Positions 18,801 to 53,045 of a DNA stretch of 64,000 nucleotides are shown piece by piece (position 1 is the first letter of the stretch; every line of letters starts with the position of its first letter). The stretch comes from Octopus vulgaris (taxonomy: Eukaryota). Made by a program: the position numbers and the translations under genes. The stretch is from assembly GCA_951406725.2 (NCBI GenBank), contig OX597822.1:109492001-109556000 (forward strand), given 5' to 3'. The notes beneath the pieces were generated by a model. That model made no database searches. It saw nothing but the letters and a program-made list of their open reading frames with translations, and was not told where the DNA came from.

Positions 18801-20059
18801 AAGCTGAAGTGTTGCAAATACCAATGGCAGAAATTCGAAATGTCTTTGAGCACTACAGTGTAGAGTTCGTGTCAAAGTAAAATGGACGGTTTTCCTTGGT
18901 ATCCGATATATGTGATATCTTTCTGTACGGTCTGAGCGGATATCACATGCGACACTATTAGGTTCGTGTAATAGATGGCTGGTTTAGCTGCACTTGTAAT
19001 GATTATTCCTTGTTAAAATAGTTATTATATGAACGACAGAAACAATCTTAACGGATCAATGAATATAGAAGAAAATCGAAAAAGTATAACAACCCAAAGC
19101 GTTTGAAACGAAATACATGAAACTATTAGGCATAATATTGATAGCATTAATGTTCTATGATCCATTAATATAGATCGGCAATCACACAAGCACAAATCTC
19201 GCTTCATCCATCTATTTTCATGAATAATAAGATATTCCAGCCATACGACGTAGTTACATGCAGTTTTGTAACTGGAAAGTTTTGTTATAGAAGGACATTG
19301 ATCTCATTCACAACTTTGACCTAATACATAATCGTATTGTTCTCCCTAATCAACATTTGTCTTTGTAGAATATTGGTCCTGTTGAATTTACAAGTTGCGG
19401 CAGCTGAATACGTATTTCACTGTTGAATGCATTATCCATATTAATATTCGACGTAACCTTTTCAAGTAATATTTATGGCTATGCAGACATATCGAAAGGC
19501 AGCAATGTTTGAGTTTCAGGATTCCATTATCTTTATCCACTTTGATAACCAACTGGAAGAAACAGGTAGTCAATAAACCTATCATTTGGAGAATTTAGTG
19601 TATACGAGAGAACGAGAGAACAGATGCCGCAAAACCCATTAAAAATTATTCGGAAAATAATCCCTTCATGTCATATGTTATACTCACCTCCCTATCTCTA
19701 TGCGGAAAGGCTTCGGTGATTTTACTACGCATGTTTGTATATGTATAGATATATATGTATTGGGTTGCGTAAATATTTGTGAGTTTGTGTGTATACATTT
19801 ATATACGTATATGTGTATATGTATGGATGTTTATGTATGCCTGTATGTATGTAGACAAGAAAAATGACCCCATTTACTAGAATAGTGATAAGGGTAAACC
19901 GGGTGACAATATAGGAATAGTTAATAAGAGAAGAGACTTGAACAATAACACCAGCATAACAGACAATGTAGTGGGGAATTGTAATACAGTAAGGTTTACG
20001 CTATCGAGGGAAGAAAACTTCAACACAAGTATCAACCCCTACACGGAGCTGACTGACCC

Positions 20060-21235
20060 AAAACTTACACCACTATTATTGAGTAACTCAACAACTCAAA
20101 TGTGGACGTAATATACCTTGACTTTGCAAAAGCTTTTGATAAAGTGGATCATGGTATGATGTGCCACAAACTGCGTGATCTTGGCATAGCTGGAAAACTT
20201 GGAGAGTAGATACATGACTTTCTTAAAGATAGAAGTCAGTAGTGGCCAGGGGAGCCATCTCAAAGAAAGCACAAATAGTAAACAGTCTTCTACGGGGCAC
20301 TAACTTGAGACCACTGATTTTCCTAGTGGCCCTCTCAGATATGCCCTAAGCTACACGGATAGCCACCCTTGTCAGTTATGCAGATGATACGAAAGTTTTG
20401 CAGAAAATACAGAACCCCAGCAATGTTGCACACCTGCAGCAGGAGTTGAATTCAACTTAGAGATGGGCTAAGGACAATAATATGCAGTTTAACGCTGAAT
20501 AATTCCAAGCTCTGCACTACCAGCGTCCAGAACTGAAAATAAAACCGGGTCCACTGGTCCACAGGGGATTACAATATCCGAGCCTAAATCAGCGAGGGAC
20601 CTGGGTATTGACTGGAATGATGATACATCTTTCCAAGTGCACAATATCAGGATGGCGACAAAGTGCAGATAACTGGCTGGATGGATACTGAGATTTTCGA
20701 GAGCAGAGAGGACACCATGGTGTTCCTATGGAGGACATTCGTCCTCAGCCGCCTGAAGAACTGCTCACAGCTATGGTTATCCAATAGTGTAAAATTAACA
20801 GAGGGCCTTGAAGGAATTAAGCGAAGCTTCACAAAGAAGATCGTCTACTAGGAAATGCTGAGACAGCTACGACTCTACTCCCTGGAGAGACGGCGGGACA
20901 GGTATGCGGCAATATACATCTGGAAGATCCTGGAAATATTGTGCCAAATTTTCGTATCGAAAGCTACAACCATGCCAGAACGGGTCGACATTGCACAGTG
21001 CCAAAGATCCCATGAATGCCAGCGCGCTTCATGACCAGTTACTGCAACAACCTTGGTTTCAGGAGCTCACAGCATTTTAATATTCTCTCAAACACCTACA
21101 CAAGGTGGATGTAGTTATTTTCAAATCAAAACTGGACCTCTTCGTTCCGAGACTGCCAGACGAAAGTAGCTCGTGTCGAGAGGTGTATATTGAGGGTAGC
21201 GACATCAAATTCTCTTATTCACCAAATGCCACATA
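20060..21235 (+). mobile_element. Decayed CR1/L2-group LINE, RT and C-terminus
   Basis: VDVIYLDFAKAFDKVDHG, SYADDTK (~20374-20395), RDLGI and LYSLERRRDRY motifs, with stops and frameshifts. Confidence 0.9.
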
Positions 21236-21689
21236 TTACAGGCGGCTCTGAATAATAACAATATTACAAAAAGTCAGTGTCCCAGCATGACCGCAGTTCT
21301 GAGCTGAAATTATAAATAATATATGTGTGTGTGTGTGTTTGTGTGTATATGTGTCTGTGTGTGTGTGTCTGTGTGTGTGTGTGAGTGTATGTGCGAGTGT
21401 GTGTGTGTATGTATTTGTATGTAAGTATGACACAACATTTGAACAGACAAGATTCGAACTCAGAAAGTAAAGAGCTTGTATAAATATAAGTCCCACACAC
21501 TCACAAAATTGGTTTTCGACCACCACCATTTTATGCCGTATAAATAATAAATGATACAAACTGCTTGACCTCCTCTTAAACCAGACAGAACAGGGGAAAT
21601 GTGCAAACATTTGAGGACAGCTGATTTGATCGAGTTGACTTAGTATAAACATATATACATGTATTCATTTACATATATCTAAATACATA

Positions 21690-21740
<51 letters not shown>

Positions 21741-21894
21741 CATAAGGGACTAAAGCCATCTGAATATGGCTAGGGACAGGGCAGGGTGGTGGGGGTGTTA
21801 CTGTTGCATTTAGCCCCAGGCGAACATCGACGTCACCAGAAGGCTCGACACCGTCACGGTGCCCTTAACCTGCAAAGGGAGGTAATTCCCCGAT

Positions 21895-21968
21895 GAAGCG
21901 GAAACCACACACGGACCATGGTTTCAAGGTGTATTGCCTATCATCGGCGTGTGGTAGGCCTCCGCTTC
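21895..21968 (-). ncRNA. Type I hammerhead ribozyme (identical copy, minus strand)
   Basis: Exact reverse complement of 22613-22686; predicted cut between 21914 and 21913. Confidence 0.85.
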
Positions 21969-22254
21969 CTCGACGAATTCTCACTCTGCAGGATTTTCTT
22001 ATATAGATTTTCAAGCAAAATACATTTGCTGATTTCGAAAATCTGTTCGAAAGCAATAATAATTCTCTAAAAGGGATATAGACAGTAACTGCTCGATAAC
22101 ATAAGGGACTAAAGCCATCTGAATATGGCTAGGGACAGGGCAGGGTGGTGGGGGTGTTACTGTTGCATTTAGCCCCAGGCGAACATCGACGTCACCAGAA
22201 AGGCTCGACACCGTCACGGTGCCCTTAACCTGCAAAGGGAGGTAATTCCCCGAT

Positions 22255-22328
22255 GAAGCGGAAACCACACACGGACCATGGTTTCAAGGTGTATTGCCTA
22301 TCATCGGCGTGTGGTAGGCCTCCGCTTC
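22255..22328 (-). ncRNA. Type I hammerhead ribozyme (identical copy, minus strand)
   Basis: Exact reverse complement of 22613-22686; predicted cut between 22274 and 22273, 360 nt from the other minus-strand site. Confidence 0.85.
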
Positions 22329-22612
22329 CTCGACGAATTCTCACTCTGCAGGATAAGGGCACCGTGACGGTGTCGAGCCTTTCTGGTGACGTCGATGTTC
22401 GCCTGGGGCTAAATGCAACAGTAACACCCCCACCACCCTGCCCTGTCCCTAGCCATATTCAGATGGCTTTAGTCCCTTATGTTATCGAGCAGTTACTGTC
22501 TATATCCCTTTTAGAGAATTATTATTGCTTTCGAACAGATTTTCGAAATCAGCAAATGTATTTTGCTTGAAAATCTATATAAGAAAATCCTGCAGAGTGA
22601 GAATTCGTCGAG

Positions 22613-22686
22613 GAAGCGGAGGCCTACCACACGCCGATGATAGGCAATACACCTTGAAACCATGGTCCGTGTGTGGTTTCCGCTTC
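22613..22686 (+). ncRNA. Type I hammerhead ribozyme, U4C core variant
   Basis: Stem I CACACG 22628-33 / CGTGTG 22668-73. Core CCGATGA 22634-40. Stem II AGG/CCT with loop CAATACA. GAAA 22656-59. Palindromic stem III CCATGG. GTC 22665-67, predicted cut after 22667. A UAC internal loop is followed by distal stem GAAGCGGAGGCC / GGTTTCCGCTTC. Confidence 0.85.
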
Positions 22687-22888
22687 ATCGGGGAATTACC
22701 TCCCTTTGCAGGTTAAGGGCACCGTGACGGTGTCGAGCCTTTCTGGTGACGTCGATGTTCGCCTGGGGCTAAATGCAACAGTAACACCCCCACCACCCTG
22801 CCCTGTCCCTAGCCATATTCAGATGGCTTTAGTCCCTTATGTTAGCGAGCAGTTACTGTCTATATCCCTTTTAGAGAATTATTATTGC

Positions 22889-22919
<31 letters not shown>

Positions 22920-23006
22920 GTGTGTGTGTGTGTGAGTGTGTGTGTATATATACTTATATGTATGAATATATATATATGTGGGTGCCTGTGTGTGTGTATG
23001 TGTATA

Positions 23007-31013: not shown

Positions 31014-31452
31014 GGATTTATAAGTCAATGATGTTCGCTGCCGTGATAGCAGTGCGATTCAATCACTTTTTAAAATTACCATTACAGATTTTAGAGCTAG
31101 CACTGAGATTTACCAGATTTCGTATACGAATTACATCTACGTAAATAATATAAGCAAAGATGCAAAAACAGATAACGGGTGTATATGCATATTCCCGAAG
31201 TTCTTGATTTTTGTTCAGCATCACGTCCGAACATATTATTTAGATAGCCACTATCTATATAAGCATTGCCTCTTTAGTTGCTTCTTTGGAGGCATAAGGA
31301 TTAAAGGATTTCACTGTAAACGCAAATTATGTTTCTTGCTGGGAGGTTAGTACATCCGGAATATTAGATCAACGTTGGAGAAAATACGCTTAAATCTGAA
31401 ATGACTTCGGTCACACACCTTCTAAGATTAGGCTAGTTTGCAAGTGAACCAT

Positions 31453-31871
31453 ATCTATTTCTCTACTACCCACAAGGGGCTAAACACAGAAGGGACAAAC
31501 AAGGACAGACAAACGGATTAAGTTGATTATATCGACCCCAGTGCGTAACTGGTACTTACTTAATCGACCCTGAAAGGATGAAAGGCAAAGTCGACCTCGG
31601 CGGAATTTGAACTCAGAACGTAGCGGCGGACGAAATACCTATTTCTTTATTACCCACAAGGGGCTAAACACAGAGGGGACAAACAAGGACAGACATAGGT
31701 ATTAAGTCGATTACATCGACTCCAGTGCGTAACTGGTACTTAATTTATCGACCCCGAAAGGAAGAAAGGCAAAGTCGACCTCGGCGGAATTTGAACTCAC
31801 AACGTAACGCAGACGAAATACCGCTAAGCATTTCGCCCGGCGTGCTAACGTTTCTGCCAGCTCGCCGCCTT
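31453..31871 (-). mobile_element. SINE family B 1.8-mer inside one TSD
   Basis: Full copy 31871-31637 plus 5'-truncated copy 31639-31453; TSD GCAA(G/A)TGAACCATA at 31440-53 and 31874-87. Confidence 0.88.
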
Positions 31872-50759: not shown

Positions 50760-53045
50760 GGAACTATTTCTTTTTTGTCGCTAAGAACTTCCTTTTTTGA
50801 TGTTAAAATTTTATTTTTCTTCACACATATTTTACATCTATTATGAGAAATTTTATAGGATCTAGCCAGACTAATTTATTATTATCCTTCAACTCTCATA
50901 TAAATTTACTTAAAACTGGAGCTACACAACCTATTTCTGTTTCTACATGTGTATTCTTCGTTTGCAACACGCCACATATCGAAATTTTCGGTTTACCCAA
51001 AATTAAAATTACTATTTCCTTCAGATTCTGCCCGACATCTGCATTTAAGTTTTTTGTGGATACAAACATACAATCACAAATTCTAGCTACACGATTTTGA
51101 TTTCGTTCATTATTAGACTTAGTAATTAAAGTATTATTAGTTTTATTACTATAAAATGTATCTAATTTATTGTTACTGATCGAAGAGATAATTGTAAAAA
51201 TGTTTTTAGATAGTGAAAAACCAATTCTAACCGTTTTATTATTAATTATTTTATTATACTTATTTACCTTATTGACATATTTAGATATAGATTTGTAAAA
51301 AGATTTAACTTAATTAGTTTTTATTTATTTATATATTTTTTTTTTGCAAAAGGATTAACAAACCGAATATTTTAGTTGAGTGGGGATGCTAGATTCCCTT
51401 GTTCGGAAATATAAGGACACAGACAACGTCGTATAGCCAGCTGGAGAGGATGTCTCCTGGGGCTAAATTGCAGCAACATTAGTCCTAAACCAGGACTGCT
51501 ATTTTATGTTGGTAAGCAATCTTTGCTACAGAGTATCATCCTTATTTTTAGCAGATTTACTAAATTTACACAATCCGTTGTGTATTGATTTAGAATTATT
51601 AAATTTGTGACTGCTTTTATCCTTTCTACTATATACAATCTTATATATATATATATATATATCGCTTTATTAAAAGCTTCATTATAGTATTCAGCATTAT
51701 TACTGAAAATTCTCCCATTAGAACATAAAAATGAAATTAGACCGGAAATTAGACGTGTAATTACTTTAGGATGATTACTATTAAAATCAACATACTTGAA
51801 GTTTGTATTAGGTTTATGATATGGTCTATATTTGGCTGTAACAAGATTAACATCTATGTAATTAAGAGAAATATGTTCATTTTAATGAGAAGTTAATAAA
51901 CGAAATCTTTTAAAAATCTATGCCGTTTTTTTTTTCATATACAAATCTAATTTCTTATTGGGTAAGGTATTAATTAAAAACAGCGCATCATCCCTTAATA
52001 GTCCACCTTTTAAGAGACACACAGACAGGCAGATGTACAAACAGTCAGAATATTCAGAATATTCAAAAGTTCAGAATATTCACTACATAAATGAAGCAGA
52101 ATGTATATCCCTGCAATATGAGGAACCAGACCAGAATCAGTCGTATTTTTTGCTAACCCAGTATTTATTACCAAATAAAATTACTGAATTATTTTAATTT
52201 TCTAAAATTATTTTAATTTCTCTTAAATTAAGTTTAGATCTATTGTTAGCAAGAAAAAGTGTCTGATTAAGAACTATAGGATTTATAGATGGATAATAAT
52301 TATCAATATCTATTAAATTTACTTTTATTTTCATTATCTATTCCAACAAAACAATTCATAGCATCCATAGATCAAGTTTCAATTTTCTAAGTGTTGTTAA
52401 ATATTCATCTAAAATACTTTTTACATGATTTACCTATTTCAGATCACCTTGAGCAAATCAATCTAACTGTACGTTTTGAATAGAATTTATCCTCAATATC
52501 TTTTAGAGTTATTCTAGGCCTCATAGGCAAAACTGGCTCTGTCCCTTCATCAAGATTATAATCCTCCATAATCTGCGAACATTCCAAGTTAATACACCGT
52601 AGAAAACTATACTTACTACCTTATACCTACTACTTATTTCATTTTTGATAAGGTCGTAGTATTTTAAAATACCAATATTATACAAGTTACTGGTTTTATC
52701 AGACATATTTTGTTTAAGGTCAGATACCAAATTCTTCAGATTCCATAACTGTTCATTCCCCCTAGATGATACTTAATGAATTTACTTTTTCTCTATAGGC
52801 AATATATCATCCTCAAATGCCGTGGCGGAAATGTTTTGGGTTTTTTTGTTTTTTTTTTTTATAAAGACATTCAACACCTTCCTTTTCAGAATCAAATCCT
52901 TGTTCAAATTCCTTCTCATAATAAAAGGTCTTCCAACCTATCCTTTGTATAAATTCAGTAGCCTTGGTAATTAGATCCGTCATACAATCCTTTTAAGTGG
53001 TTTATTAAACGTCAATTAGTAATTTCTCCATTTTACCAGCGAAAA
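50760..53045 (-). mobile_element. Decayed Penelope-like element (RT N-half and GIY-YIG remnants)
   Basis: SDKTSNLY, RITLKD..RTVRLICSR*SEIGKSCKSILD, IDIDNYYPSI and LSKFI*ELKDNN blocks on minus. Confidence 0.75.
51410..51480 (+). other. Diverged relative of the structured non-ribozyme domain of the 360-bp unit
   Basis: ataaggacac...gtc gtatagccagctggagaggatgtctcctggggctaaattgcagcaaca aligns to ataagggcac...gtcgagcctttctggtga...atgttcgcctggggctaaatgcaacagtaaca. Confidence 0.55.

Follow-up and report, generated by a model that had tools for sequence, protein, structure and literature searches.

We found that a short repeat array in the genome of Octopus vulgaris belongs to a family of non-LTR retrozymes whose insertions carry the footprint of Penelope-like elements (PLEs), very probably because the family is mobilised in the manner of PLEs. 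The array occupies positions 21737-22889 of the window, the whole 64,000-nt stretch of contig OX597822.1 analysed here (assembly GCA_951406725.2, positions 109,492,001 to 109,556,000 of the forward strand). It measures 3.20 units of 360 nt and lies between two (TA)n tracts, in agreement with the roughly 3.2 units counted by an initial annotation made from the letters alone. One correction applies to the order of the units: the array is not head-to-tail throughout, since a 618-nt arm abuts an inverted 536-nt arm, and a plain head-to-tail array is ruled out by the two back-to-back arms meeting at 22354. We numbered the unit (U) as the reverse complement of window 21914-22273, u1 being the base directly after the predicted GUC cut, and use 'sense' for the strand that bears the conserved hammerhead. 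The locus is made up as follows.

21702-21736: left (TA)n target flank
21737-22354, minus strand as hammerhead sense: left arm, 618 nt, 1.72 units, from u280 round to u178
22347-22354, no strand: head-to-head arm junction, with 6-nt microhomology, one mismatch and one shared base
22354-22889, plus strand as hammerhead sense: right arm, 536 nt, 1.49 units, from u47 round to u222
22846-22889, plus strand: 44-nt 'tail' (u179-u222), lying between the two fixed ends and found at this outer end alone
22890-22919: right (TA)n target flank

The left arm is 5'-truncated at u280 and has its outer end at u178, a fixed end that we call 'short'; the right arm, inverted relative to the left, starts on the inside at u47 and stops on the outside at u222, the fixed 'tail' end. 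The two sites joined at the arm junction pair with each other in the predicted RNA rod. The initial annotation had overlooked the inverted arm, the pair of fixed ends and the preference for (TA)n, which tell us more than any other feature of the locus. No long direct terminal repeats of the LTR kind were found at the locus or in the clean two-armed loci described below. The unit is non-coding: subfamily unit lengths vary irrespective of frame, and the only frame of 120 or more codons that overlaps the locus extends out into the TA repeat. Autonomous PLE coding capacity was sought by tblastn with two PLE proteins, neither of which matched the window. In the left arm, the first unit lacks a TATA-like motif (at u269, a candidate promoter element), and read-through from either flank would give a hairpin of more than 500 bp; on both counts it is doubtful that this particular locus serves as an RNA source. 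Three other repeats were seen in the window. A profile match (E 5.7e-10) at 51375-51478 marks a decayed fragment of an older relative within this retrozyme lineage, an abundant SINE-like repeat at 31451-31822 consists of two tandem 184-nt copies in which a motif scan found no hammerhead, and the stretch at about 19850-21250, just left of the locus, looks by eye like a decayed LINE reverse-transcriptase remnant.

Three type I hammerhead folds, identical in sequence, are distributed over the two arms.

22321-22262, minus strand: hammerhead 1, predicted cut between 22274 and 22273
21961-21902, minus strand: hammerhead 2, predicted cut between 21914 and 21913
22620-22679, plus strand, in the inverted arm: hammerhead 3, predicted cut between 22667 and 22668
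21914-22273, minus strand: predicted 360-nt monomer, lying between two predicted hammerhead cut sites

The initial annotation had described these three folds correctly, together with the two minus-strand GUC sites that lie 360 nt apart and bound 22273-21914, and the four hairpin arm pairs that it named are all present in the unit. Each fold has a 6-bp stem I, a 3x1 internal loop and a 5-bp distal stem; helix II has 3 bp, a U-U opposition at its base and a 7-nt loop, and is followed by GAAA; helix III is palindromic (an 8-bp palindrome, which suits a dimer) and is followed by GUC. The core, CCGAUGA, is a U4C variant, and neither this substitution nor the U-U opposition figured in the initial annotation. 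The monomer, with a GC content of 46.9%, is predicted to fold into a branched rod of -122.8 kcal/mol (z = -5.3), a stability reached by 0 of 100 shuffles. An Rfam comparison, which the annotation had proposed as a check, found no hammerhead at the gathering score in the window and none at E<=10 in 21700-22920; we attribute the miss to the variant core and not to the absence of a hammerhead.

For a covariation analysis we aligned 27 rows, namely the window and 26 of 45 stretches, excluding junction-cut and near-duplicate rows. The 18 hammerhead pairs were paired in 96.9% of cases, against 17-54% in slid controls; two-sided changes occurred in 6 pairs, 4 of them in the distal stem past the 3x1 internal loop; and the covariation score was reached by 0 of 500 shuffles, all figures to be read with the rows being related to one another and found by the core pattern, and with the structure drawn from the same rows. 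Independently of this alignment, the 3-8 core pair alternates between C-G, U-G and U-A among subfamilies. Helix III takes the form of four different palindromes among subfamilies and is palindromic in 137 of 158 distinct copies. In a variant from coded organism B, one change falls at the free core position N7 and another turns a stem I G-U pair into A-U. As judged from the sequences, which covary even among subfamilies as little as about 58% identical, the sense type I hammerhead is kept by selection. Three published cases bear on its activity, the first two speaking against it: U4C is reported to make cutting much slower in vitro while still permitting viroid infectivity (PMC3088659), one of nine Xenopus retrozyme dimers cleaved in vitro and the other eight did not (10.64898/2026.07.22.740005), and the axolotl HHR_Amex2 shares the U-U opposition at the base of helix II with the octopus unit, yet cleaves (PMC7229834).

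The unit is widely dispersed. A search of the genome (2.8 Gb, 227 contigs) gave at least 234 matches with 40 of 711 candidates scored, spread over many contigs and many of them identical, and among the matches listed at least 47 reached full score across all 360 nt. Pattern searches for the young hammerhead gave 789 exact copies; a relaxed hammerhead pattern gave 1438 matches, a U3-core pattern 230 and a hairpin pattern of a sister subfamily 567, each with 0 in the reversed control; exact junctions of the tail end with TA numbered 221, with a control of 0. Fourteen further representatives, mutually less than 96% identical, range from 0.96 down to 0.58 identity to U, with subfamily units 347-362 nt long; folded as circles with 12 shuffles each, 13 of the 14 gave a sense fold with z < -3. 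Arms reach 15 units, and the largest insertion found (L185) is an 8.3-kb palindrome-like array. These counts bear out the suggestion in the initial annotation that further copies would exist, and they support a young, dispersed and apparently recently active non-LTR retrozyme family. Three blocks of the unit (u98-u118, u143-u161 and u184-u220) are conserved across subfamilies at 58% identity; they lie around the two fixed ends, include the helix enclosing the short end, and are candidates for a protein-binding site.

The arrangement seen at this locus is the rule in the family. We assembled 44 complete records, 42 of them distinct (L001 equals L003, and L163 equals L164), from a sample that was not random: 30 loci were chosen by their tail end, so that this end but not the opposite one is given by that choice, and 30 by identity to the query. 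Both orientations occur in 35 of the 42 distinct loci, comprising 32 clean two-armed inversions and 3 inversions with an extra segment, and the other 7 have a single orientation. Of the 32 clean two-armed loci, 29 pair a short outer end (mostly u178) with a tail end (mostly u222), the exceptions being L023, L024 and L027. Inner ends are scattered, and in most loci the arms are joined blunt or through an overlap of 1-7 nt. The same short/tail pairing was found in 17 of 19 inverted loci picked by the U3-core and sister-hairpin patterns and in 7 of 14 from older subfamilies; the remaining inverted loci in both pattern-chosen sets have one unclassed end each, and none has two like ends. (TA)n lies at 72 of the 88 flanks of the 44 records, some of which were chosen for a TA flank, and also at loci that were not so chosen. 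Flank duplications of 8-12 bp were recognised by eye at two non-TA loci, L030 and L158.

Two ideas about how the arms are joined were set aside. Fold-back copying of one arm from the other is rejected as a general route, because either arm can be the longer (the tail arm is longer in only 13 of the 29 short/tail loci). For junctions driven by RNA stems, the microhomology excess is mild: over 31 junctions the best 10-nt match averaged 3.84 against 3.25 +/- 0.23, and 12 of 2000 random sets were as high. Unrelated sequence has been captured at or near the arm junction in two loci (L127:970-1232 and L131:280-948), the second of which is a seeming patchwork of unit pieces and other repeats.

Inverted 5'-truncated copies, a 30-40 bp tail on one side and a preference for (TA)n have been reported for PLEs (PMC8557442; PMC3846280). 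A purified PLE protein was found to cut AT-rich DNA on both strands and to extend each of them, its reverse transcriptase (RT) starting at two internal sites, which delimit the tail (PMC11167929). The retrozyme tail, at 44 nt, is somewhat above the 30-40 nt usually given. On the strength of this match we consider PLE-type mobilisation of the retrozyme family very probable, and 'viroid-like', the term used in the initial annotation, overstated: our data indicate an element that parasitises Penelope-like retrotransposons. A dispersed minisatellite or foldback element, amplified at the DNA level by unequal crossing over or, MITE-like, through its inverted ends, with the hammerhead as a relic, would also have tandem units and outer inverted ends, and local tandem amplification is the model put forward in a recent preprint (10.64898/2026.07.22.740005). 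However, such an origin is extremely unlikely in view of ends offset by a fixed 44 nt, random inner ends and (TA)n targets as for PLEs, a hammerhead with compensatory change, and short dispersed arrays that are homogeneous across an inversion.

The genome contains PLEs that could supply the machinery. The genome holds at least 6136 GIY-YIG candidates, with 150 scored, and an open 781-codon frame for RT and GIY-YIG nuclease was present in 14 of 20 regions examined. This frame has a CxxxxCxxC motif ahead of the nuclease, as given for PLEs of the Neptune/Nematis type (PMC8557442). The 781-codon family inserts into (TA)n targets. In its elements the hammerhead cut site comes first, then the short end after about 70 nt, the tail end after roughly another 39 nt, and finally the body; the three inverted autonomous PLE copies inspected (L066, L079 and L074) all have short and tail ends in (TA)n. 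The very young PLE family of L061-L072, L079 and L080, which has the open 781-codon frame, an upstream frame of up to 479 codons, a U3-A8 hammerhead and two fixed ends in (TA)n targets, is a candidate active element. One PLE copy, at L074:1812-4992, has 775-nt inverted arms and a hammerhead that likewise carries a U4C core.

No sequence kinship between the unit and PLEs was detected among 70 PLE loci by blastn, nhmmer or tail alignment. Neither blastn of the unit against 50 GIY-YIG loci nor blastn of 60 young loci against six PLE cores revealed an autonomous parent, and nhmmer over the 70 loci together with the tail alignments matched only separate retrozyme copies. At L102:886-1745 an old retrozyme copy is joined on its 5' side to a PLE RT fragment, in the same orientation and without a TA tract. 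Tracing this type of join through 20 loci again matched only separate retrozyme copies, and L102 is possibly a template-switch chimera, a single case.

The sequence variants within the arrays bear on the nature of the template. Over 37 two-armed loci, a comparison of variants relative to U at sites present in both arms gave 36 shared and 14 discordant cases, whereas permuted arm pairs gave a mean of 0.096 and a maximum of 0.28 in 2000 permutations. Seventeen loci were uninformative, and 9 of the 20 informative ones were fully concordant. None of the subfamily-defining variants differs between arms, while G25A is one-sided between arms in three loci. In L185 one five-site haplotype runs throughout approximately 15 + 8-9 copies, and in L187 a variant found at no other locus fills both arms (7 + 3 copies). 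That both arms carry one haplotype suggests that both target ends were primed on one template, at u178 and at u222, and the uniformity of long arrays suggests that one unit was copied repeatedly, most simply as a circle. One master locus expressed per germ cell could mimic part of the haplotype sharing. Weighing these points, we think a monomer circle as template, with two primings on one molecule, rather probable.

A different template within the same family and the same PLE machinery would be an uncut linear multimer transcribed from a donor array, with cutting rare or occurring elsewhere and no circular intermediate. PLE insertion in vitro does not need hammerhead cleavage: mutants inserted normally and unprocessed RNA was the main template (PMC11167929). 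Such a template is also in keeping with the weakened core (U4C and U-U), and internal priming requires no free 3' end, so that fixed ends are expected of it too. Minority variants recur at intervals within an arm in L014, L022 and L188, which fits a multimeric template (dimer or trimer) or later local duplication. However, minority variants mostly occur once and are not repeated from one locus to another, the new variants that fill all units of both arms in L185 and L187 imply a single-unit bottleneck in the lineage, and the hammerhead has been kept with compensatory changes in many subfamilies. We regard the uncut linear multimer as unlikely.

Our preferred model is a non-LTR retrozyme that acts as a miniature non-coding PLE with a repeatedly copied monomer template, and we judge it likely. 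According to this model, multimeric transcripts would cleave themselves into 360-nt monomers, most likely as double hammerheads formed through the palindromic helix III, and a host ligase would close the monomer into a circle. The RT-endonuclease of a PLE would cut both strands of a (TA)n tract and prime the two target 3' ends on a single RNA, each at one of its two internal start sites, which lie 44 nt apart. From there each polymerase would go round the template a random number of times, and joining of the cDNA ends, blunt or through an overlap of 1-7 nt, would give an inverted array.

The strand opposite to the ribozyme carries a hammerhead-like motif of its own, whose function is doubtful. 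It occurs three times at the locus.

22250-22316, plus strand: opposite-polarity hammerhead-like motif
21890-21956, plus strand: opposite-polarity hammerhead-like motif
22691-22625, minus strand: opposite-polarity hammerhead-like motif

This motif has a full core, a 4-nt linker for helix II, GAAA, a 7-bp helix III closed by A-U, GUA and a 2-bp stem I. The strict motif arose in 0 of 20000 shuffles and a loose one in 135 of 20000, a null that ignores that this strand is the complement of a hammerhead-bearing, self-complementary rod. The 16-nt stretch bearing the core is constant in 16 of 30 distinct close variants, while the sequence it pairs with changes; the other 14 lack the core, which is also absent or incomplete in the more distant subfamilies listed, so that it is confined to the youngest clade. 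The distal stem I is broken in sister variants. To fold, the motif requires about 20 kcal/mol, and the sense ribozyme 7.

The youngest clade stands at the end of a trend. A tree of 34 of 36 picked loci displays a ladder of growing complementarity between the sense core and u7-24, with duplex energies of -5 to -12, -9.3, -13.1, -14.1 and then -18.9 kcal/mol, although L257 is off the trend at -11.5 kcal/mol and support for several inner branches is weak. The core of the youngest clade is perfectly complementary, over 7+7 nt, to the bases immediately beyond its own predicted cut site. An off-switch in cis, in which this anti-core would block the ribozyme, is not favoured, as the required fold of the circle is less stable than its minimum by about 21 kcal/mol. 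Template-switch correction is a mechanism that acts on imperfect inverted repeats. It would account for both the complementarity trend and the U4C change with no need of a function, and the antisense motif is probably a by-product.

Two further readings give the antisense motif a role. The youngest clade could be an ambisense replicon in the manner of the Avsunviroidae or the carnation retroviroid-like element, with plus and minus multimers each processed by a hammerhead of their own polarity and the DNA copies being by-products. The full core, the A-U closed helix III, the GUA and the 2-bp stem I of the motif, its rarity in shuffles and the constancy of its 16-nt stretch in 16 of the 30 close variants speak for this reading, which is nevertheless very unlikely: the motif lacks helix II and is costly to fold, its stem I and core are lost in the relatives described above, the shuffle test has the bias just given, and the arrays are homogeneous, unlike an RNA quasispecies. 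CarSV and the Avsunviroidae (10.1101/2022.07.19.500677) likewise comprise a small hammerhead circle with a DNA counterpart and cores on both strands, which in octopus would apply to the youngest clade and to a predicted circle; the second octopus motif differs in lacking helix II and in not being conserved, and we saw no sign of RNA-to-RNA replication. With a chance that we put as slim, the retrozyme of the youngest clade may instead be turning ambisense while remaining a PLE passenger, processing both polarities, for example if the motif cuts as a dimer. If true, this would be an intermediate between a retrozyme and a viroid-like replicon caught in the act.

Twenty of the 24 sequencing runs listed, representing six coded organisms, also contain the stretch or part of it, as contigs that come without strand or end information and from runs none of which is recorded as RNA. 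Two of the four runs compared (X1 and X14) each have a 390-nt contig running right round the unit, a result that tandem DNA gives as well, and X1 also contains a genomic end junction with TA.

Non-LTR retrozymes have been described in coral, mussel and axolotl, with PLEs proposed as their mobilisers (PMC7229834; PMC7761336; PMC4209133), and a 2026 preprint by Li, Clavereau and Pollet links vertebrate retrozymes to PLE terminal repeats (10.64898/2026.07.22.740005). The animal retrozymes of PMC7229834 and of the preprint resemble the octopus family in their non-coding tandem units of 150-450 bp (350-390 in mussel) with GC below 50%, and in their type I hammerhead with an internal loop 1, short palindromic helix III and stable fold. 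They differ in three respects. Inverted arms, a tail and microsatellite targets are the rule in octopus and are not described in the main text of these papers; a PLE terminal-repeat match is recorded for 21 of 57 Xenopus families, whereas the octopus unit has none among 70 PLE loci; and circles have been shown for the animal retrozymes, whereas the octopus family is known here from its DNA.

Endonuclease-positive PLEs (PMC8557442; PMC3846280; PMC11167929; PMC4209133) share with the octopus family a hammerhead followed by two fixed ends, a one-sided tail, an inverted 5'-truncated copy, (TA)n or AT-rich targets and flank duplications. The octopus unit differs from them in having no reading frame, a canonical instead of a minimal hammerhead and a 44-nt tail, and in being so short that each arm spans many turns. 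The non-autonomous Chlamys elements such as MRC1 (PMC8557442) are likewise non-coding PLE passengers with multicopy head-to-tail insertions; these are found in green algae, belong to a clade without canonical hammerheads and have a 3' end resembling that of their autonomous partners.

In the literature searched, mostly open papers, we found no description of a retrozyme from octopus or any other cephalopod. The main texts of PMC7229834 and 10.64898/2026.07.22.740005 do not contain 'octopus', nor 'inverted' as applied to insertions, and that of the latter does not use 'tail' for insertions; in a 2026 octopus repeat annotation the words 'ribozyme' and 'retrozyme' are absent from text and supplement (PMC13282606). 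Retrozymes are already known from another mollusc, the mussel (PMC7229834), and what is new is that retrozyme insertions carry the PLE footprint.

The octopus family would extend retrozymes to cephalopods, a host group for which we found no earlier report. The movement of animal retrozymes, with a PLE as partner and a circle as template, has so far been proposed from co-occurrence and terminal-repeat similarity, whereas in octopus hundreds of near-identical copies bear an insertion footprint that itself agrees with the PLE mechanism. The short length and polymorphism of the unit let these copies inform on an open point of PLE biology as well: two RT start sites used one per arm, on a template of a single haplotype, suggest that one RNA is primed twice. 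With intact PLE frames and their passenger present in one genome, the ideas of a circular template and of double priming may be tested in a reconstituted reaction.
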